The notes beneath the pieces were generated by a model. The model was not told the origin of the DNA, made no database searches, and saw nothing but the letters and a program-made list of their open reading frames with translations. A stretch of 33,876 nucleotides of DNA from a virus, in the IMG/VR virus record IMGVR_UViG_3300025112_000081. The stretch is one strand, 5' to 3'. Positions 1 to 33,876 of the stretch are shown here, piece by piece. The position numbers and the translations under genes are program-made. Numbering within the stretch: position 1 is the first letter of the stretch; each line of letters starts with the position of its first letter.

Positions 1-29
1 ATGCCTTCTTTTTCTATTAGCGCGTCTGC
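1..29. repeat. Terminal direct repeat (circular-assembly overlap), copy 1; identical to 33848..33876
   Basis: 29/29 nt identical (atgccttctttttctattagcgcgtctgc) at both ends of the window; a minus-strand ORF stays in frame across the join. Confidence 0.9.
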
Positions 30-827
30 CATTCGCTCGGCTTTAGCTATTGAAGTTTTATCGTTAGTTACGGATGTTGATTTCCCGATTTCAGTGGTTA
101 GCCCATTGGCTGCAATCATCTCATTGCTAGACCGTAAAAGACCAAGAACGAAATCAGCATCATTCATCCCATCAAGTGACTTAATGAATGAGCCTAGTTT
201 CTCAGCCTTCACAGGCAATGCACCGAATTCAGCTTTTGCGATGGCGACACATTCAGAGAGCCGCTTTTCGTCTTCGGCTTTCTTGATCTTGGCTTCAAGC
301 TCTTCGGCTTTTGTGATTGCTGATTTGTTAGATTTCCAAAGTTGCTCGACCATCGAGCGCATATTCTTAGGCAAGGCAGCAAGGCGCTTTTGCATTTCCT
401 CTTCATCCTCTTCTTCATCCTCTTGCTTTTCTGCCTCTTCCTCTTCATCAGCTTCGGGGGTCTCACCTTCGGGGGCGGCTTCCTCTGCTACTTCGGGCTT
501 CTCTTCTTCTTCTTCTTCTTCTTGCTTGGAAAAGCCACCGAGGGCCATAAGGTCTTTTAGAAGATTCGCTGGAACCTCTTCTTGAAAAGCGCTTAGGATT
601 TGAACAGCGCTCTTGATTCCTTCAACCGCTTGCTCGCTCAGTTCTGCCTTCTTTAGCCGCTCAATGATGGCCTCACCCTTTTCAAAGGGGGCCGCCAGAA
701 TTGCTTCAATCACATCCATTTCTTTTTTCTCCGATTTTTTGATTGCAAAAGTGCGCTTGTTCGCGCCTTTATCAACGAGACTAACCTCAACGGTTTCAAG
801 TTCTCGCAGTTCAGTTTTTTTCGACAT
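1..827 (-). CDS. Scaffolding protein, N-terminal 275 codons (gene is cut by the linearisation point and continues at 33847..33766)
   Basis: Hand translation from ATG 827..825 is open to position 1: MSKKTELRELETVEVSLVDKGANKRTFAIKK... with an acidic tract (QEEEEEEKPEVAEEAAPEGETPEADEEEEAEKQEDEEEDEEE). It is missing from the ORF track because there is no stop inside the window. It lies between the protease and the decoration/capsid genes. The plus-strand ORF 1..585 is its antisense shadow. Confidence 0.75.
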   Translation of the reverse strand, partial: MSKKTELRELETVEVSLVDKGANKRTFAIKKSEKKEMDVIEAILAAPFEKGEAIIERLKKAELSEQAVEGIKSAVQILSAFQEEVPANLLKDLMALGGFSKQEEEEEEEKPEVAEEAAPEGETPEADEEEEAEKQEDEEEDEEEMQKRLAALPKNMRSMVEQLWKSNKSAITKAEELEAKIKKAEDEKRLSECVAIAKAEFGALPVKAEKLGSFIKSLDGMNDADFVLGLLRSSNEMIAANGLTTEIGKSTSVTNDKTSIAKAERMADALIEKEG

Positions 828-3199: not shown

Positions 3200-4033
3200 T
3201 TAAGTTTCCCCATTGGGGCCGCGTCTAGTTGCTACAACTCGACATCTGCAGTTTGCTATTTGATGTATTGGGCCAATTTTAGGGGAGGACATCGGGGTTC
3301 CATCGGGGAGAATAAACTTAGCATCAATCGGGACGGTGACGCCGTTCATTTTCCAGTGTTTCCGGTTTCCTGATTTCTTATCATCTATGACCGCAACCCA
3401 TTTTTTCCATCTGATTCCCGCTGATTTCATACCCTCAACCCGACCTTGTGCCCTGGCATTCCCTATCTCTGTTCGAGCTATTAACTCAGCTCTCCCGTGA
3501 ACAGTCCGCACCAAGCCCACACCGCCGGGAATTTCTTCTAGCCTTTCCCTTCCCTCTTGCTCTGGTTTAATGAAAAAATTCGTTCTGATTCTTCTGGCAA
3601 CTTCGCCCATGCTCGGGGTTGGCTTTTCTCCGAGCCATTTAGACATCGCTCCCGATAACGACCTTTTAAACTCCCAAGAGATGCTCCGAGTTATCCCAGT
3701 GACAAGAATCTCTTTCTCGCGAATATAAGCCTCAACTCTTCTTTGCGGAATTCTAAAGGCCTTATTCTCTTCCTTGCCTGCGTCCTCCATTTGCCTTAGG
3801 CCGTGACGCTGCAGAATTGCTAGGAGCTGTCTTTGCTTATCAGTCAAAACTGCTTTGGTGATTCGATTCCTGACGCCCTTACCTCTTAAATCAGAGACTG
3901 CCTCTCTGATAAGCTCATCCCCGTAGGATGCCAACCAGCTAGAAATATCATTGGTAGCGGCCTTGGCTCTAGCGTCTTCTTTGCCTAAGAGTCTTCTCTC
4001 TCTTCTGCTTACTCGTCTTTTTCGTTGGGGCAT
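3200..4033 (-). CDS. Minor head protein, Mu F / SPP1 gp7-like
   Basis: C-terminal WKKWVAVIDDKKSGNRKHWKMNGVTVPIDAKF...PIHQIANCRCRVV fits the Phage_Mu_F signature (W...D.r....H..m.G.......pP.H.nCRC); TAATG junction with terL. Confidence 0.65.
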   Translation of the reverse strand: MPQRKRRVSRRERRLLGKEDARAKAATNDISSWLASYGDELIREAVSDLRGKGVRNRITKAVLTDKQRQLLAILQRHGLRQMEDAGKEENKAFRIPQRRVEAYIREKEILVTGITRSISWEFKRSLSGAMSKWLGEKPTPSMGEVARRIRTNFFIKPEQEGRERLEEIPGGVGLVRTVHGRAELIARTEIGNARAQGRVEGMKSAGIRWKKWVAVIDDKKSGNRKHWKMNGVTVPIDAKFILPDGTPMSSPKIGPIHQIANCRCRVVATRRGPNGET

Positions 4034-5376
4034 TAAAAGAACACCTGAGGGGAATAGTTCTCACCTGGGTTTATAGTTATCTCCCGGCATGACTTTGAAT
4101 CAAGTTCAGAGATTGCCCAAACCAAAGCATCCATACGGTCGGGTGAATCTGAATTGCTACCGGGGAGAAAATTACACATTTGATCTTCAAGGTCACTAAA
4201 TACCCCAACATGATGAACCCGGCCTTGCTCATATCTTGCGGCGACCGGTTCCGACCTTGAAAATTTCCCGCGAGATGCATGAACGTTCTTGGTCGCGGCT
4301 TGGGGATTTATTCCGTTGATAATTGTTCGCCAAGTATCGCCGCCCTGATTTGCTTCAAAAACGATACGGTCTGCCATGTGCTCCTGGTAAGCCATTATTG
4401 CTTTCCGACACACCGCATCAGGAGAGCCCCTAAAAGAATAATCGGCAAGGACATAAAAATCCTTTGCAGCTCTTCCGACGACGACAACCCCGCTCTCATC
4501 GCTTGTTGCCTTGCTCGTGGTTGCCGGGTCCACTGCAACCACTATCCTATCAAGAGGAGGGTGGTCCTTAACTCTTGCAGCCTCTATTAAATTTCTCGTG
4601 AATAGAGCGCCGGGGATTTCATCCAGAAGCTCACCTTCTAGCTCTTGTCTTCCTAAGTGCGTGTCACCGTATCGGTCAAAAATAGTTTGGATAAATACCG
4701 GGGATAAATTGCTCTTATTTTCCATCGTCGAACCGGTGGTCGTGATGGTGGACTCTAGCTCGGCGAGGTCCCTAAGGAACCTCCTCGGCCTCGGTGTCGT
4801 TGTTACAATCACGCGGGGATGAATCCCAAGCCGGAGTCCGAAAAGGAGCATATCCCAGGCCTCGGTATATCTCCAAGAAGCGAGTTCATCACACCATGCA
4901 AAATCACATTGAGGCCCCCGGAGCTGGTCAGGTTGTTCACTTGAAAAGGTCGTAGCCGTTGCCCCGTTGGGCCAAGTCAACCGGCGCTTAGATGGTTCAT
5001 ATTCGGGGCGGAAGTCTGGAGGGGATACGGACAAGATTCCGCTCTCGCCCTCAACCATGACATCCCGAACATCAGAAGCCGCACGGGCCACAAGATGCAC
5101 CCTCTTGGCTACTCCAGAACGCACCGCATCAATCACGCTCTCTGCACCTGTTCTAGTCTTGCCCCATCCTCGTCCAGTTTGAATCAACCAGCAATTCCAA
5201 TCCCCCACCGGCAGAATTTGTTCAGGTCTTGCCTTAAAGCACCATTCATTTTCAAGCGCTTCTAGCTCATCGGGGGCCATCTCATTAACTATCTTCATCC
5301 TCTGCAATTCGTTTAGCCTGCACAGCCAGCTTGTCCAAGACTCGTTCTCTCGCATCCTTGACTTCAACTCTTGCAT
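4033..5376 (-). CDS. terL: Terminase large subunit
   Basis: P-loop GRGWGKTRTGAE (as in GTA/Terminase_6-type TerL GGRGAGKTRAGAEW), then a nuclease half (VAVDPA...DESGVVVVG). GGAGG lies 9 nt upstream of ATG 5376. In-frame alternative starts at 5298 and 5280. Confidence 0.85.
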   Translation of the reverse strand: MQELKSRMRENESWTSWLCRLNELQRMKIVNEMAPDELEALENEWCFKARPEQILPVGDWNCWLIQTGRGWGKTRTGAESVIDAVRSGVAKRVHLVARAASDVRDVMVEGESGILSVSPPDFRPEYEPSKRRLTWPNGATATTFSSEQPDQLRGPQCDFAWCDELASWRYTEAWDMLLFGLRLGIHPRVIVTTTPRPRRFLRDLAELESTITTTGSTMENKSNLSPVFIQTIFDRYGDTHLGRQELEGELLDEIPGALFTRNLIEAARVKDHPPLDRIVVAVDPATTSKATSDESGVVVVGRAAKDFYVLADYSFRGSPDAVCRKAIMAYQEHMADRIVFEANQGGDTWRTIINGINPQAATKNVHASRGKFSRSEPVAARYEQGRVHHVGVFSDLEDQMCNFLPGSNSDSPDRMDALVWAISELDSKSCREITINPGENYSPQVFF

Positions 5377-5740
5377 CTATGGTTGCCTCCACCTCTGCTT
5401 TAACCTTTGGGATAAACATGGCCCGACGCCGCTCTAGCTTCCATGCCGCCGCTTGCCACTGGCCACCCTGGGCCGCTTTCTCGATTATTGCCAACCACCT
5501 TTGAGTTGCTAAGCCTTCAGCTTCTTTTATGCGCTCCCGGAATTTCTGATAGACTGCCGCGTCCTTGCGGTCTGAATCAGCCCATTCCATCCATTTGTAG
5601 AAGGTCGTTTCCCCTATACCAGCACACCCACAAGCGTCTTTTTTGGGGCACCCTAGCTTGATTGCCTGGACAAAAGCGTCCTCGATTTCTTTGTTTAGCT
5701 TAACCTTTCGGCCTACTCTTTTCTTCGGACTCTTAGCCAT
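5285..5740 (-). CDS. terS: Terminase small subunit (HTH)
   Basis: 151 aa, basic N-terminus, HTH-like GCAGIGETTFYKWM, immediately upstream of and overlapping terL. Confidence 0.6.
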   Translation of the reverse strand: MAKSPKKRVGRKVKLNKEIEDAFVQAIKLGCPKKDACGCAGIGETTFYKWMEWADSDRKDAAVYQKFRERIKEAEGLATQRWLAIIEKAAQGGQWQAAAWKLERRRAMFIPKVKAEVEATIDARVEVKDARERVLDKLAVQAKRIAEDEDS

Positions 5741-6938
5741 TCACCAGCTCGGCAGTCTTCCCCGTGAAGTCTTCCCAACGCTTGATCACCACATCGCAAT
5801 AGACCGGATCGATCTCCATCCCGTAACAGTCTCGATCCAGTTGCTCACACGCGATCAGGGTGGAGCCGCTACCCATGAACAGATCCGCAACCAACTGACC
5901 CGCGCCACTGCTATGGCTGATCGCATGGGCGGGAACATGAACGGGCTTTTGTGTTGGGTGTAAATCGTTCTTTGGATTAGGGGCCAAACCCCAAACGCTC
6001 AAGGCGTGACCTTCGGGCGGAAAATTAAAGGTGTGTTTCCCTCGGGTGGCATAACAGATCATTTCGGCGCACCATGTCCAATGCCTCTTAGTCAAGGAGG
6101 GCATCGGGTTAGGTTTCGACCAAACGCACCAACTAAAATGATCGGCCCATTGGTCCATCCACTCCCAAATGCTCCCCGCCAGATGGTGAGAGGTGCAAAC
6201 ATAAACAGAACAGTTTTCAGCCATAGCCAAGGCGAACGACTCCTCGACGCTTTGAAAACTAAAGTCCCGATCCCACTCACTCCTCATTAGCGCGGCGTGT
6301 GTCTCCCTCACCGAAGCGGCGACCCCCTTGTTTTTCTCCGCTATGTTATAAGGCGGATCAGTGAATACCAGATCGGCCCGTTGCCCGTTCATGAGCGCAG
6401 CCACATCCTCGGCCTTGGTCGCATCTCCGCACATAAGCCGGTGATCTCCCATCGCCCAGATCTGGCCAGGCTGGACCGTTGGATCCTCGGGTGCTTCGGG
6501 TACTTCGTCGGGGTCCGTTTGCCCCTCATTGATCCCGGTCGTGTCATCGACAAGCGCCGCAAGTTCATCAGAGCTAAACCCGGTCGAAGTCAAAAGCGCC
6601 TCATCTTCGATTTGAAGAGCCGAGAGAATTTCAGCAAGTGCGCCATCATCCCACTCGGCGAGGTCAGCCGTGCGGTTGTCTGCTATTGCATAGGCCGTCG
6701 CATCTGAACCCTCAAGCTCTGTTCTAACGACGTTGAGTGTTCTCCAGCCCAAAGCTTTGGCCGCTGCAAGTGTACCATTGCCAGCAACCACGATACCCTC
6801 TGAATTAATGACAATCGGCTTTTGCTGGCCAAACTTGGCAAGGCTCCCTTTGATAGCATCGAGGTTCTTATTGTCGTGCGTTCTTACGTTCGCCGGGTCA
6901 AAGATTAGTTTATCAATGTGTACAGATTCGATTTGCAT
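5733..6938 (-). CDS. ParB-like nuclease domain fused to a beta-class N6-adenine (or N4-cytosine) DNA methyltransferase
   Basis: N-terminal ParB/Srx-like domain (IDKLIFDPANVRTH...GNGTLAAAKALGW). Motif IV VFTDPPYN lies upstream of motif I FMGSGSTLIACEQLDRDCYGMEID, which is the beta-class order. Confidence 0.8.
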   Translation of the reverse strand: MQIESVHIDKLIFDPANVRTHDNKNLDAIKGSLAKFGQQKPIVINSEGIVVAGNGTLAAAKALGWRTLNVVRTELEGSDATAYAIADNRTADLAEWDDGALAEILSALQIEDEALLTSTGFSSDELAALVDDTTGINEGQTDPDEVPEAPEDPTVQPGQIWAMGDHRLMCGDATKAEDVAALMNGQRADLVFTDPPYNIAEKNKGVAASVRETHAALMRSEWDRDFSFQSVEESFALAMAENCSVYVCTSHHLAGSIWEWMDQWADHFSWCVWSKPNPMPSLTKRHWTWCAEMICYATRGKHTFNFPPEGHALSVWGLAPNPKNDLHPTQKPVHVPAHAISHSSGAGQLVADLFMGSGSTLIACEQLDRDCYGMEIDPVYCDVVIKRWEDFTGKTAELVNG

Positions 6939-7014: not shown

Positions 7015-7314
7015 TTAGAACAGGTCCTGAGCTGGTTCTCTTTGCTGCCGATAACCAGATGATTCTTCCTGCTTTGGCTTTTGACGGGATACGCATAAGC
7101 GGTGAGTAGGTTGTTTTGAGCCTTCTTCTCTCCGGTCATTCTTAAAGACCCAGTATTTCATAGCACCCGCCGAACCGCTCATGTAGCTAGTTCCTGGTTC
7201 ATGCCAAAGCCCACAAACCTCGTGCGCTGAGTGTCTGGCTTTGGTGATTACTTCCTGAACTTCTGGAATTTGTAAAACATCCTCGACGGTCCATCCTTGA
7301 GGTAAACGTTTCAT
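7015..7314 (-). CDS. Hypothetical protein (99 aa)
   Basis: ORF-track entry 7015..7380 trimmed to ATG 7314, which is preceded by AAAGGAGAG and the ATTCAACC leader motif; followed by the strong terminator. Confidence 0.55.
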   Translation of the reverse strand: MKRLPQGWTVEDVLQIPEVQEVITKARHSAHEVCGLWHEPGTSYMSGSAGAMKYWVFKNDRREEGSKQPTHRLCVSRQKPKQEESSGYRQQREPAQDLF

Positions 7315-7322
7315 TTTAGTCT

Positions 7323-7341
7323 CTCCTTTAAGAGGTTGAAT
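7323..7341 (-). promoter_or_regulatory. Start-associated leader motif (ATTCAACC-TCTT-AAAGGAG), minus-strand copy
   Basis: Reverse complement of 7323..7341; ends 8 nt before ATG 7314. Confidence 0.5.
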
Positions 7342-7351
7342 TGGTAAAGCC

Positions 7352-7380
7352 ACTTTATCCCAGGTATGAGCCGCAACCAA
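7352..7380 (-). promoter_or_regulatory. Sigma70-like promoter candidate (TTGGTT-17-TAAAGT)
   Basis: Read on the minus strand upstream of gene 7314..7015. Confidence 0.25.
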
Positions 7381-7511
7381 TAAATTTGACTAACATGGGG
7401 AAAAAGAACCCCGAAATGGGGACAATTAAACCCATGTGATTTTTGCGGGTGGATGTGTCTTCGCCAAGATGGGCCGGTTGGGCCGGAAAAAGAAACAAGG
7501 CAGGCTGGGTA

Positions 7512-7558
7512 GTTTGTAGTGTTTGTAGTGTTTGTAGTGTTTGTAGTGTTTGTAGTGT
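7512..7558. repeat. Tandem iteron array: GTTTGTAGT x5 perfect copies plus a partial GT
   Basis: Perfect 9-nt units at 7512, 7521, 7530, 7539, 7548. Confidence 0.95.
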
Positions 7559-7659
7559 AATTTCCGGATTTCATTTATACTTTTTTTCTCGTATCTAAGC
7601 CCCCTAATATCATTACGCTTTTCCGTATTATATATTTTAACTCTTATGAATTAGTAAAA

Positions 7660-7680
7660 TACACTACAAACACTACAAGA
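7660..7680. repeat. 21-nt repeat TACACTACAAACACTACAAGA (two iterons in inverted orientation), copy 1
   Basis: ACTACAAAC is the reverse complement of GTTTGTAGT; identical to 7745..7765. Confidence 0.9.
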
Positions 7681-7715
7681 AATGAGTTTATCTAACAATA
7701 TCAAATGGTTAGCTT

Positions 7716-7741
7716 GTAGCGGAAGGAATCGCTTACGCTAC
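7716..7741. repeat. 26-nt perfect direct repeat GTAGCGGAAGGAATCGCTTACGCTAC, copy 1 (internal dyad GTAGCG...CGCTAC)
   Basis: Identical to 7802..7827. Confidence 0.9.
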
Positions 7742-7744
7742 TTT

Positions 7745-7774
7745 TACACTACAAACACTACAAGATTTGTAGCG
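7745..7774. repeat. 21-nt repeat copy 2 plus an abutting forward degenerate iteron (TTTGTAGCG), giving the dyad CTACAA-GAT-TTGTAG
   Basis: 7745..7765 is identical to 7660..7680; 7766..7774 has one mismatch to TTTGTAGTG. Confidence 0.85.
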
Positions 7775-7801
7775 TTAGACACACCGCGTTAGAGCGTAAA
7801 A

Positions 7802-7827
7802 GTAGCGGAAGGAATCGCTTACGCTAC
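7802..7827. repeat. 26-nt perfect direct repeat, copy 2
   Basis: Identical to 7716..7741; followed by AAAA, giving GCTACAAAA (a degenerate inverted iteron). Confidence 0.9.
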
Positions 7828-7899
7828 AAAATAAAAGTTCTAATAAAGGGGGGGGGTTATTGTAAGAACCGACCCAATCGCCTCAACTGGCCAAAACGC

Positions 7900-7939
7900 A
7901 TGGCCATTAATGGGGCAGATTGGTCCCATTTAAGGCCAT
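7900..7939. repeat. Imperfect 40-nt palindrome ATGGCC-ATT-AATGGG-(10 nt)-CCCATT-TAA-GGCCAT
   Basis: Two 6-bp stems separated by a 3x3 internal loop, read by eye. Confidence 0.5.
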
Positions 7940-8312
7940 GATCCACCGCCGGTTTCTCTCTGTTAGTGCTAGTTTCTTACCCCGTAAAATTTACCCATTT
8001 CATAACCAAAGGGTTAGTCATATTCTGCCCCCCCTTTAATGTTAAGCTGTCAAGTCAAAAGCCCACCCCCCTTTTGACTCGCTTGATATTATTAGGCTTT
8101 TCTCATGTGTACAAAAGTAGTCAAATTATTGACACCGAAAAGTTTACTTTAGTTCCCCAGCAATTTAAATTGAATCTGTGGACATAGGAGAGCGAAAAAT
8201 TAATCGAAAATAAGTTAGAGGACCGCCGCTACCATTTGCGCACCCGCGCTCTCCCTTTGTCCACCCAAAGCGGTGGCGGTGGTTCTCTCTTTTCACTCGG
8301 GAGGGTAATGCG

Positions 8313-10067
8313 ATGGGCCATGCGACGGGGCCAAGGTCGGGGAATTCAGAAAGAAAAATAAGAAACAACCTTCGGGGGCTCAACCACATCCCTGAAGATG
8401 ATTGGGTTGAACACGAGCTACTCGACGACCCAGGATTCAATTGTCCCCCGCAATGGGGGCAGCTTGAGAAGGAAACCGGGCCAGCTCACCCAGTCCCAGC
8501 GCTTGGGGATTGGAGCAAAGATGGTGCTCTTCTTATTCAACTCAAAGCATTCTTCTCCGAATATATCAACGAGACCGATAATAGCGGCAATCCTTGCCGG
8601 ATGGTCAAACACAACGATGAGGTTGACTTGTGGGGGGTTATCAAAGCCGGGTGGAAAAGACAGAACGGGGCTGAGCCAGTCATCACCGAGGGGCAGATGT
8701 GGCTCTACCAGAGGAATATTGGAATCTGGGCAAAAGCAGACACACCGGAGAGGCTTTATTTGTTCAGGCTCCTGCATGGCTTAAGCGCTGGCGATGGCTA
8801 CCAAGATTTTGATGGCAAAACGATTATGATGAACAAGAGAAATCTCTTGGCCCTCGATTTCATGGCGATGCATGACCACGCAATTATCCATAAGAAAAGC
8901 CCTTTTGCTGATGAAGTCCCTGGAGTTGTGCTTCTTACAAATTTACAGCCTGAGAGAAACCCGGCTTATTCAGTCAAGCAAACCCTTATTCACATGCCCG
9001 ACAAGGATGGCCACGTCCATTACATGGCTCCCGGTTTTGAAGAATTCAAACGCCACACGTATAACGAGCCGACGCCACGCCCCAAGCTCTCGGAAGTTGT
9101 TAATCTTAGATCTGAAAAAAACAACCCGGCGGCCTGGCACCATTACATGAAATCACTCTTTGCGGGGGATGAAGATGCAAAGGCAAAGGTGCAAACGATT
9201 GAAGAGCACTTGGGTGCCTCCCTATGCGGGCTTGCTACTAAATTTCAGCGCGTGGTGGTTCTAGAAGGCTCAGGGGCCAACGGGAAATCGCTCTTCATGG
9301 AAATAGCCCGCCGCCTATTTAATGCTGAAGATGTGACCGTGACGAGTCCCGACACTTGGGGCCGTTTTGGAACAGTTGACCTTATGGGGAAGAAAATCAA
9401 TCTAGTCACTGAGCTAGATGAGGGTTCAGTCTTTAAAAGTGATACCTTCAAAAGTGCAGTTACTGGGGATTTAATACGCGGGGAGTACAAGGGAGGGGCA
9501 AGTTTCTCGTTCAGGCCGGTGGCCGGGCATATTCTATCATGCAACTCTTTACCACCAGCAGCGGACCAGTCCCCCGGATTTTATCGGAGATTCATCTTGG
9601 TAAAGTTTGGGCGGCGATGGAGCCACTCAGACCCCGGATATCGAGAAGCGGACCAAATCCTAGATTCTATTATGGAAGTAAGGCACGAGATAGTTCAGCG
9701 CCTTGTTTGGTCTTGTGCTGAGTTGATGAAGCGGGGGCAATATCCGAACCTTTCAAGTCACAATTCAGCAATGAAAGACTGGGCTCAGAATTCTGATTCA
9801 GTGACTGACTTTGCGAATTCATGCCTTAAGAAAGATGATGAAGGAGACTTTATTAAGGGAATCGAAAAGCAACCAGACTTACATGGGGCCTTTCTGGTGT
9901 TTACCAAGAACACCGGGAGGAAGGGCATGGGGAATCGAAATTTCTACAGAAGGCTTGCAGCGATTGAAGGGGTAGACAAAAGAGAAAAGCACTACAACGG
10001 GAGTGCCTGTTTTAATGTCAAGCTAAACTATCAGGCGGACTGGTTAGAGGGCTCAAAGGATATATAA
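8313..10067 (+). CDS. DNA primase/helicase, D5 / P4-family SF3 NTPase
   Basis: Walker A VVVLEGSGANGKSLFMEI preceded by a D5_N-like segment (WHHYMKSLFAGDEDAKAKVQTIEEHLGASL). GGGAGGG lies 7 nt upstream of the ATG. The N-terminal ~270 aa are unassigned. Confidence 0.75.
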   Translation: MGHATGPRSGNSERKIRNNLRGLNHIPEDDWVEHELLDDPGFNCPPQWGQLEKETGPAHPVPALGDWSKDGALLIQLKAFFSEYINETDNSGNPCRMVKHNDEVDLWGVIKAGWKRQNGAEPVITEGQMWLYQRNIGIWAKADTPERLYLFRLLHGLSAGDGYQDFDGKTIMMNKRNLLALDFMAMHDHAIIHKKSPFADEVPGVVLLTNLQPERNPAYSVKQTLIHMPDKDGHVHYMAPGFEEFKRHTYNEPTPRPKLSEVVNLRSEKNNPAAWHHYMKSLFAGDEDAKAKVQTIEEHLGASLCGLATKFQRVVVLEGSGANGKSLFMEIARRLFNAEDVTVTSPDTWGRFGTVDLMGKKINLVTELDEGSVFKSDTFKSAVTGDLIRGEYKGGASFSFRPVAGHILSCNSLPPAADQSPGFYRRFILVKFGRRWSHSDPGYREADQILDSIMEVRHEIVQRLVWSCAELMKRGQYPNLSSHNSAMKDWAQNSDSVTDFANSCLKKDDEGDFIKGIEKQPDLHGAFLVFTKNTGRKGMGNRNFYRRLAAIEGVDKREKHYNGSACFNVKLNYQADWLEGSKDI

Positions 10068-17053: not shown

Positions 17054-17418
17054 TGGCCTCTGAACCATGCCTTTGCGGCGCTCTTGATTGCAAATTCTGC
17101 AACCCCAGCGGGTGGCGGGAAGTTCTTAATCCGCCATCGGGGGATTGCTACTGGTGCAAAGATACCGTTGAAGCAACGCCCGGAGATGATGCCATCTGCA
17201 GCGGTTGCCTTTACCCATTCACCGACAATCCCGATGTGATTATTGAATTTTCAATCAACCAAAAAGACGAAGACGAGAAGAAAATCAAAGAGCTATCTGA
17301 AAAAATTGACGAAATAACGATTATCACTCGGCACTTGAATCAGCAAAATATGCGTTTCAGAGAAGAGCGAGAAGCTGATTCTAAACCCAAGCCACTCAAC
17401 GGAGAGGCTACACTATGA
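17053..17418 (+). CDS. Cys-rich (zinc-ribbon-like) protein with a coiled-coil tail (121 aa)
   Basis: CLCGALDCKFC...CYWC...CSGC, then a K/E-rich helix; TAATG junction. Confidence 0.5.
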   Translation: MASEPCLCGALDCKFCNPSGWREVLNPPSGDCYWCKDTVEATPGDDAICSGCLYPFTDNPDVIIEFSINQKDEDEKKIKELSEKIDEITIITRHLNQQNMRFREEREADSKPKPLNGEATL

Positions 17419-17570
17419 GCAACAACGAACAGCTCTCAGAAACGATTCTGATAAGGATTTCCCCAGAGATGAAGGCAAGCATCAGGAAAGAAGCAAAAGC
17501 CCGTGGGAAGGCGTCCTCGGCGCTCATACGCGATGCAATCAGTAAAGCAGTTACCCAGAAGAAAAAATAA
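17415..17570 (+). CDS. Ribbon-helix-helix (CopG/Arc-like) DNA-binding protein (51 aa), not in the ORF track
   Basis: ATGA overlap; MSNNEQLSETILIRISPEMKASIRKEAKARGKASSALIRDAISKAVTQKKK shows the strand-helix-helix pattern typical of RHH proteins. Confidence 0.6.
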   Translation: MSNNEQLSETILIRISPEMKASIRKEAKARGKASSALIRDAISKAVTQKKK

Positions 17571-33765: not shown

Positions 33766-33876
33766 TTATCGTCCTTTCTCTTGCTGATATTCGGCATAGA
33801 GGCTTGGGTTATTTTTCCAGACATTCGCCAAAGCTTTTGCTTTTGTGATGCCTTCTTTTTCTATTAGCGCGTCTGC
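33766..33876 (-). CDS. Scaffolding protein, C-terminal part (continuation of 827..1 across the circular join)
   Basis: ...ADALIEKEGITKAKALANVWKNNPSLYAEYQQEKGR-TAA (stop at 33768..33766). 827 + 82 unique nt = 909 nt = 302 aa plus stop. Confidence 0.75.
   Translation of the reverse strand, partial: ADALIEKEGITKAKALANVWKNNPSLYAEYQQEKGR
33848..33876. repeat. Terminal direct repeat (circular-assembly overlap), copy 2
   Basis: Identical to 1..29. Confidence 0.9.

Follow-up and report, generated by a model that had tools for sequence, protein, structure and literature searches.

We analysed a 33,876-nt stretch of viral DNA, IMG/VR record IMGVR_UViG_3300025112_000081 (hereafter the window, meaning this whole stretch), and found a module of short, opposed repeats (iterons) around an AT-rich tract at positions 7506-7830. 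This module is probably the replication origin of the phage, of a DnaA-independent type served by a self-loading helicase that resembles the Rep proteins of Staphylococcus aureus pathogenicity islands (SaPIs) and phage-inducible chromosomal islands (PICIs) and the alpha protein of P4; the assignment draws on comparative and structural evidence. The window is a complete tailed-phage genome, and its two ends share identical 29 nt (1-29 = 33848-33876), which shows that the assembly, of ~33.85 kb, is circular. The module lies in the gap given in the first line below, followed by its components.

7315..8312: non-coding gap, with the late/packaging operon running leftward from it and the early/replication operon rightward; 998 nt, the largest of the window.
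7512..7558 (+): left array of iterons (core TGTAGY), in which GTTTGTAGT is repeated contiguously 5.2 times, period 9, 100% matches (Tandem Repeats Finder).
7559..7660 (no strand): AT-rich spacer, candidate DNA-unwinding element; 102 nt, 73.5% A+T vs 51.8% in the window.
7660..7680 (-): right inverted doublet 1, TACACTACAAACACTACAAGA, the reverse complement of two array units.
7714..7741 (no strand): head-to-head iteron pair 1, TTGTAGCGGAAGGAATCGCTTACGCTAC, with GTAGC and GCTAC cores 21 bp apart.
7745..7765 (-): right inverted doublet 2, identical to doublet 1 (TACACTACAAACACTACAAGA).
7766..7774 (+): single iteron TTTGTAGCG, from the repeat analysis.
7802..7829 (no strand): head-to-head iteron pair 2, direct-repeat partner of pair 1.

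The sequence-only reading of this DNA had proposed five perfect tandem copies at 7512..7556, an AT-rich stretch of ~100 nt at 7559..7660 and two identical 21-nt blocks of inverted iterons (7660..7680 and 7745..7765). Tandem Repeats Finder confirmed the array, the base composition bore out the AT-rich stretch, and the two blocks proved identical in sequence. The AT-richest 100 nt of the whole window (7607-7706, 77%) overlap the spacer. TGTAGC variants were seen at 7715 and 7768, and GCTACA at 7823, where that reading had placed them. Its inventory overlooked that GTAGCGGAAGGAATCGCTTACGCTAC, 26 nt long, is directly repeated without mismatch (7716-7741 and 7802-7827) and forms a head-to-head GTAGC/GCTAC pair each time; the sites it listed stand, and the total rises to 14. 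Pairs 1 and 2 make 42-nt imperfect inverted arms (7709-7750 and 7793-7834), and the stretch 7705-7835 folds strongly (fold z-score -6.1).

The 14 GTAGY/RCTAC cores all lie in 7509-7829, and 12 of them have the full TGTAG core. TGTAG/CTACA occurred 12 times in 7500-7835 (336 bp), which matches the earlier count of about 12, against 0.38 occurrences expected from the density in the rest of the window (Poisson ~1e-14). The longer TTGTAGY was found 19 times in the window vs 5.5 ± 2.3 times in shuffled sequences, with 12 of the 19 inside 7514-7829. No second motif cluster was found in the window, and outside 7500-7835 there were only scattered single copies. DnaA boxes were not enriched (TTATCCACA with <=1 mismatch gave 5 matches vs 6.5 expected, none of them in the region), and the 66-nt gap 3' of the helicase gene held no repeats. 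The iteron module proper occupies ~7506-7830 only; it ends ~480 bp before the helicase start, and the earlier placement of the region directly upstream of the 'primase-helicase' gene does not apply to the repeats.

A comparison with related phages, which the sequence-only reading had suggested, was made with the following relatives. They come from marine metagenomes and include a TARA scaffold.

L006: helicase 98% identical to that of the window.
L003: helicase 89% identical to that of the window.
L019: holds no helicase gene; placed by its TerL (98%).
L026-L035 group: recovered via the 99-aa late protein (85% identical).
L005: helicase 78% identical to that of the window.
L001 = L004: helicase 78% identical to that of the window.

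Results showed that the iteron module was present in every relative recovered, with spacings largely fixed. The copy number of the left array across the window and its relatives was 5, 4, 3, 3, 3, 2 or 1. The last left site and the first right site stood exactly 111 bp apart in the window, L006, L003, L005 and the L026 type, and doublet 1 stood 53 bp from head-to-head pair 1 in all four lineages measured. Pair 1 was followed by pair 2 at 86 bp, with a single deviation in L005 (76 bp, one helical turn less). These spacings hold although the spacer sequence diverges and the helicases fall to 78% identity. Doublet 1 was 100% conserved in L006, L003 and L005. The doublet of the L026 type is GCTACAAACGCTACAAG, which agrees with the TGTAGC left array of that type; the sixth base changes in step on both sides in these two lineages, being TGTAGT/ACTACA in the window, TGTAGC/GCTACA in the L026 type and mixed in L003. 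Co-variation of protein and iterons across the close relatives was uninformative, because the TGTAG core is identical in all of them. A scan of IMG/VR with the 19-nt iteron doublet gave 11 matches, among which L019 was the only relative; the others were coding-sequence coincidences with no motif cluster and were rejected.

This pattern bears on two other explanations. The repeats could be mainly non-functional or selfish (a slippage-prone satellite and palindromic cassettes in a tolerant gap), or they could form a structured non-coding RNA. The gap does gather variable cassettes that invert, come and go (cassette A, palindrome D, a poly-G motif and a 27-copy 10-bp array in L001, all described below), array copy number ranges from 1 to 5, and the strong fold of 7705-7835 would suit an RNA. 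Unlike the surrounding cassettes, however, the module is found in all relatives with indel-free spacing and with cores conserved on both strands. Its sites occur in both orientations, as expected of a DNA-level element, and no Rfam match was found in the gap. We therefore regard this explanation as highly unlikely. The other is a centromere-like site for the ParB-domain protein encoded at 5733-6938, which would act in genome positioning or nucleation. This ParB_N-methyltransferase fusion lies two genes away, and relatives keep ParB_N genes at the same position, but relatives that keep identical iterons differ by swaps or rearrangements of the ParB_N cassette, and L003 retains only 33% identity over 132 residues. 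No partition ATPase, lysogeny gene or plasmid-maintenance gene was seen among the window genes, and phage ParB_N-methyltransferase fusions are not known to act as centromere binders. The probability of a centromere is almost negligible.

The proposed initiator is a superfamily 3 (SF3) helicase encoded to the right of the module.

8313..10067 (+): SF3 (D5 / P4-alpha / SaPI-Rep-like) helicase, proposed initiator.
9753-10025 (residues ~481-571 of the helicase): C-terminal winged-helix domain, predicted by profile and AlphaFold2 model.

The protein matched Pfam DUF5906 (E 2.8e-16), gave a sub-threshold match to Pox_D5 and has an invariant Walker A motif, GxGxNGKS. Its only sequence relative in the PDB was 7OLA, PriRep5 of SaPI5 (phmmer E 7.5e-6). 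A family profile of 29 sequences matched PriRep5 with E 1.9e-53 across the N-terminal, ATPase and C-terminal domains, in an alignment that begins at the collar and reaches residue 746 of 797, and the top Foldseek matches of the helicase model were 7OLA chains (E 4e-18). The C-terminal profile matched the winged-helix DNA-binding domains of RFX5 and RFX1 (3.9e-5 and 9e-4), and the AlphaFold2 model (predicted template modelling score, pTM, 0.74) ends in helix-helix-helix-helix-beta-hairpin. The prediction of a winged-helix domain at the C-terminus is thus supported. The RFX-type winged helix has been aligned with the origin-binding domain of P4-alpha and the C-terminus of pRN1 ORF904 (PMC2777425). 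Used alone against PDB sequences, the C-terminal domain gave spurious matches only and the family profile was required; the P4-alpha origin-binding domain (1KA8) gave no direct match to the helicase.

The earlier label 'primase-helicase' found no support in its primase part: no primase domain was detected. Pfam gave no match to one, residues 1-260 matched no primase family, the PHROG 'primase' matches span only residues ~230-577, and the PDB profile alignment starts at the collar region of PriRep5. The phage may rely on host primase. In the AlphaFold2 model, residues 1-64 are predicted to be disordered and residues 65-260 form an alpha/beta domain. Gene-family searches of the window found no integrase, no DNA polymerase, no recognisable primase domain and no other recognisable initiator, and a scan of a genome collection found no prophage relatives of the helicase.

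The Reps of SaPIs initiate replication as helicases that load themselves, with no need of a loader, and they recognise penta- or hexanucleotide iterons by a C-terminal winged helix (PMC9371898). SaPI origins hold 6-12 iterons, with an AT-rich centre flanked on either side by two iterons or more, those of one side pointing against those of the other (PMC9371898). The layout of opposed iteron sets around an AT-rich centre is that of SaPI/PICI origins and has been called unique to them (PMC9371898, PMC6092414). The window shares with them an SF3 helicase with a predicted C-terminal winged helix, for which PriRep5 is the best match in sequence and structure. It also shares iterons with a 5-6-nt core, arranged as five rightward units, 102 AT-rich nt and two leftward units (14 or 12 cores), and the absence of DnaA boxes. 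In contrast to SaPIs and PICIs, which are islands with an integrase and a repressor but no full set of virion genes, the carrier here is a whole tailed phage (terS, terL, portal, protease, head, tail, endolysin) in which no integrase was detected, and the helicase has no detected primase domain.

Two further groups of origins offer partial likenesses. P4 alpha has the same domain order, with an SF3 helicase followed by a winged-helix origin-binding domain (PMC2777425). It differs in that residues 1-260 of the window helicase have no match to a DnaG/Toprim primase, and the window has no second, distant repeat cluster equivalent to crr. The P4 origin, like the window, has short iterons on the octamer scale, both direct and inverted. 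In classical iteron origins (lambda ori/O, pPS10, RK2, F) the initiator sites likewise adjoin an AT-rich unwinding element; their iterons are 17-22 bp long and phased at ~22 bp, Rep or O recruits host DnaB, and DnaA boxes are usually present. In contrast, the window has contiguous 9-bp units and no DnaA boxes, and its putative initiator is itself a helicase.

At such an origin, the winged-helix domain of the helicase would read the TGTAGY sites, and helicase rings would assemble on both iteron sets. The AT-rich tract would melt without DnaA and the helicase would load itself. Synthesis would be carried out by host polymerase and probably by host primase as well, because no polymerase or primase domain is encoded. 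More speculatively, initiator occupancy might also modulate the early and late promoters, since the early and late operons diverge from the two sides of the module.

Clusters of short motifs also accompany more distant members of the helicase family. We examined five loci (L007-L011) whose helicases are 17-31% identical to that of the window, and each had a locus-specific 6-7-nt motif in both orientations, within 250-330 bp of the helicase stop codon. An unbiased 7-mer cluster scan placed the top cluster directly after this stop codon in L007, L009 and L011, and a GGTGTA/TACACC set was found at the corresponding place in L008 and L010. The motifs surround a stretch 5-14 points higher in A+T than their own locus. 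In L007, three GCGGATAGTT units oppose three AACTATCCGC units ~200 bp apart between convergent genes, and this cluster is therefore not a promoter. Since each of the five loci has its own cluster, opposed short iterons beside the helicase gene follow the protein family.

The same loci bear on whether the module could be a pac site for the small terminase, similar to that of P1. The module heads the operon that holds terS and terL, and the TerL and portal are of types (Terminase_6N, Mu-like portal) that commonly go with headful packaging. P1 pac has short-repeat clusters on both sides of a ~100-bp centre, which resembles the layout here, and the clusters of L007 and L011 also lie between replication and packaging modules. 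However, the module is 1.8 kb from terS with two genes intervening, and the L008/L010 cluster sits at the helicase stop codon with no terminase within ~4 kb. The P1 site is located inside pacA and has Dam sites, whereas the repeat units here contain no GATC-type methylation site, and nothing connects TerS with the motif. A pac site is, on this evidence, very unlikely.

The main rival to an origin is an operator array, which is not mutually exclusive with it. A ribbon-helix-helix (RHH) protein (17415-17570), another small phage protein or the helicase acting as a repressor would bind the repeats cooperatively and, with looping, set the early/late switch. We consider this unlikely. The RHH gene named by the sequence-only reading is real (PF01402, 29.4 bits), and the operator role proposed for its product found no support. 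The promoters of the divergent operons must lie in this region, which separates the two. Contiguous direct or inverted units of 7-9 bp, similar to those seen here, are bound by RHH proteins such as omega of pSM19035, MetJ at its met-boxes and CopG. In L003, a -10-like box, TGTTATAAG (read by eye from the sequence), lies ~24 nt downstream of the end of the array, and rigid, helically phased spacing would also suit a looped repression complex. However, the RHH gene does not adjoin the array but lies 9.6 kb off. In the 17.7-kb L004 locus, where the cluster is retained, the called genes gave no RHH homologue and no Pfam RHH match (RHH presence was judged in L004 only, as the contigs of other relatives are too short), and the viral-contig scan found no close RHH relative. 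A fixed-length AT-rich spacer of 102 bp between opposed sets is not a feature of RHH operator arrays. The distance from the array to the late-gene start codon is not conserved (~70 nt in L003 vs ~200 nt in the window, where a cassette intervenes), which speaks against a promoter element whose position matters. No other intergenic site has the motif, a sigma-70 scan gave promoter-like sites no more often than in shuffled sequence, and the distant helicase homologues have analogous clusters in non-promoter contexts.

Several observations weigh against an origin at this place. Here the cluster stands 480 bp from the helicase gene, on its 5' side, whereas clusters lie immediately 3' of rep in SaPIs and PICIs and 3' of the helicase gene in the five distant homologues. 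SaPI origins as described are simpler than the right half of this module, where head-to-head pairs and 42-nt inverted arms occur; two such pairs among 14 sites have not been described for them. The region must also hold early and late promoters, and sequence alone does not separate an operator role from an origin. Within the AT-rich spacer, the conserved blocks TATACTTTTT and TCTTATGAATTAGTAAAATAC suggest specific sites (promoters, host-factor sites) and not mere meltability. L001/L004 has a single left-array unit and lacks the doublets. The winged-helix assignment derives from profiles and an AlphaFold2 model, not from a DNA complex, and the P values for L008 and L010 are optimistic, the motif having been picked by eye. 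The cumulative GC-skew minimum at ~7-8.5 kb coincides exactly with the switch of coding strand and is confounded by it; GC skew was rejected as origin evidence for this reason. The earlier interpretation is supported in part: the Rep-like helicase, the SaPI/PICI layout, the conserved geometry and the clusters of distant homologues, none of which the sequence-only reading had to hand, favour its origin, and its RHH-operator alternative gained no support.

A more far-reaching version of the origin reading would see a PICI/SaPI-type opposed-iteron origin in a true tailed phage, moved into the control region. Helicase loading would then fire replication and gate the early-to-late switch, and cassette A with the pseudoknotted helicase leader would form an attenuation/antitermination circuit coupled to firing. 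We consider this version distinctly unlikely.

The start of the leftward gene is most likely the ATG at 7314-7312 behind a GGAGAG ribosome-binding site, not the TTG at 7380, and the gap therefore spans 7315-8312 (998 nt). It is ~five times longer than the next-largest gap in the window (194 nt). Four open reading frames (ORFs) in the gap (51-91 aa) had no Pfam match, no tRNA was found there, and two blocks of it are missing in L003, in agreement with the long gene-free divergent region claimed earlier. The notion of a 0.93-kb control region was narrowed: the iteron module at ~7506-7830 stands, and ~40% of the gap is other material, namely lineage-variable palindromic cassettes and a structured, terminator-like helicase leader. 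Blocks 7381-7500 and ~7835-8050 are absent in L003 and rearranged or inverted in L001 and L005. The features outside the module are as follows.

7394..7436 (-): cassette A, a 43-nt palindromic terminator-like hairpin, CATGGGGAAAAAGAACCCCGAAATGGGGACAATTAAACCCATG; terminator-like scan match, fold z-score -3.2; outside the conserved module.
7845..8040 (no strand): lineage-specific block with G9TTATTGTAA (7848-7865), palindrome D (7899-7940) and CATATTCTGC7TTT (8019-8037).
8053..8105 (+): two hairpins, one with a 9-bp stem (8053-8079), the other at 8081-8097 and followed by TTTTCTC; conserved in L003 and the L026 type.
8120..8133 (no strand): palindrome GTCAAATTATTGAC with TTGACA, read by eye; conserved in L006, L003, L005 and the L026 type.
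8178..8305 (+): structured helicase leader, hairpin 8217-8233/8272-8288 with a U-rich tail; ribosome-binding site GGGAGGG at 8299-8305.

Cassette A stands on the left side of the iterons in the window, in L032 and in the L026 type; L003 and L019 lack it. In L001 (5740-5785) and L005 (~6247-6288) it is inverted and moved beside the helicase gene; as it is inverted when relocated, its polarity toward the flanking operon is always the same. L003 and the L026 type lack the block 7845..8040, and in L001 and L005 it has been rearranged. The palindrome GTCAAATTATTGAC is possibly the -35 box or an operator of the early promoter, judging from its TTGACA; a sigma-70 promoter and terminator scan of the gap gave no more than chance and called no promoter at 8120..8133. 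In the leader, a second helix (8178-8194/8247-8264) interleaves with the long hairpin in a pseudoknot-like manner. Compensatory double changes were found at 6 of the 15 pairs of the long hairpin (4 sequences), with 98% of cells paired, and no Rfam family matched the leader. It may attenuate transcription or act on translation, and in this way control helicase expression.

Some further observations concern individual elements of the gap. The sequence TATCAAATGGTTA (7700-7712), between the right doublet and head-to-head pair 1, fits the consensus of integration host factor (IHF), WATCAANNNNTTR, which is degenerate; this IHF-like sequence is kept in L003 and the L026 type and not in L006, L005 or L001. 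Palindrome D is 42 nt long (CATGGCC...GGCCATG), and its central ~10 nt are flipped between the window and L006 (~440-481), whose helicases are 98% identical; the whole palindrome is inverted in L001 (5528-5571). The centre of the 26-nt head-to-head pairs is flipped in L005. The flipped centres of palindrome D and of the head-to-head pairs look like hairpin-loop inversions. The poly-G(9-10)+TTATTGTAA motif is 100% conserved, with one copy each in the window and L006 and two in L001 (5623-5640, 5702-5720); L005 has a variant, TTATCGTAA. A further viral contig, L024, is otherwise unrelated but has the motif after a poly-G run of ~35 nt (~6712-6760). Scans with G8TTATTGTAA and cassette A gave chance-level matches or an unrelated repeat family of rabbit-gut Bacilli metagenome-assembled genomes and were discarded. 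In L001, 5226-5500 (= L004 7226-7500) consists of ~27 tandem 10-bp GGACTATCTT units with a 60-nt super-period, punctuated by ATCCAGACACCGCTC. This array lies inside the corresponding intergenic region and is carried by no other lineage; its ACTATC core resembles the L007 iteron AACTATCCGC.

On the genome scale, the leftward arm starts from ATG 7314 and encodes the 99-aa protein, the ParB_N-methyltransferase fusion, TerS, TerL, a MuF-like protein, a Mu-like portal and a protease, and then crosses the contig junction to the major head and tail genes. The rightward arm starts at 8313 and encodes the SF3 'primase-helicase', a DUF2800/PD-(D/E)XK exonuclease, RecT, a resolvase-like protein, the RHH protein, a phosphoesterase and an endolysin. 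No DNA match was found among deposited phages, and protein similarity there was remote only. The contig was cut inside a leftward gene, of which the ORF at 1-585 (+) is probably an artefact. The genes of the leftward operon referred to above are these.

7015..7314 (-): first gene of the leftward operon, 99 aa, Cys/His motif, no family match.
5285-5740 (leftward operon): terS.
4033-5376 (leftward operon): terL.

The 99-aa protein, another candidate binder, has the invariant motifs HEVCGLWH, YMSGSAG and PTHRLCVSRQ and possibly a Cys/His metal site. Only five homologues were found among 5.8 billion proteins, and its AlphaFold2 model was unusable (predicted local distance difference test, pLDDT, 53). 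Between this first late gene and terS, the cassette differs among close relatives (window 5733-6938; L026 2884-5070; L004 4760-6347; L005 1916-5133). It holds a ParB_N-N6/N4 methyltransferase fusion in the window, ParB_N + TAGT + Tet_JBP in the L026 type, a methyltransferase + AdoMet_dc in L004, and a methyltransferase, a 272-aa protein and TAGT in L005. The site looks like a hot spot for DNA-modification genes.

The element belongs to a known kind of origin, a familiar design in a new instance, and the finding leaves the understanding of origins unchanged. It provides a testable assignment of origin and initiator for an uncultured marine phage lineage, and origins in metagenomic phages could be annotated by the rule that a cluster lies beside the DUF5906 helicase gene. 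The design of opposed iterons with a self-loading SF3 helicase is seemingly not limited to satellites such as SaPIs and PICIs, and its wider spread bears on the source of satellite replication modules.

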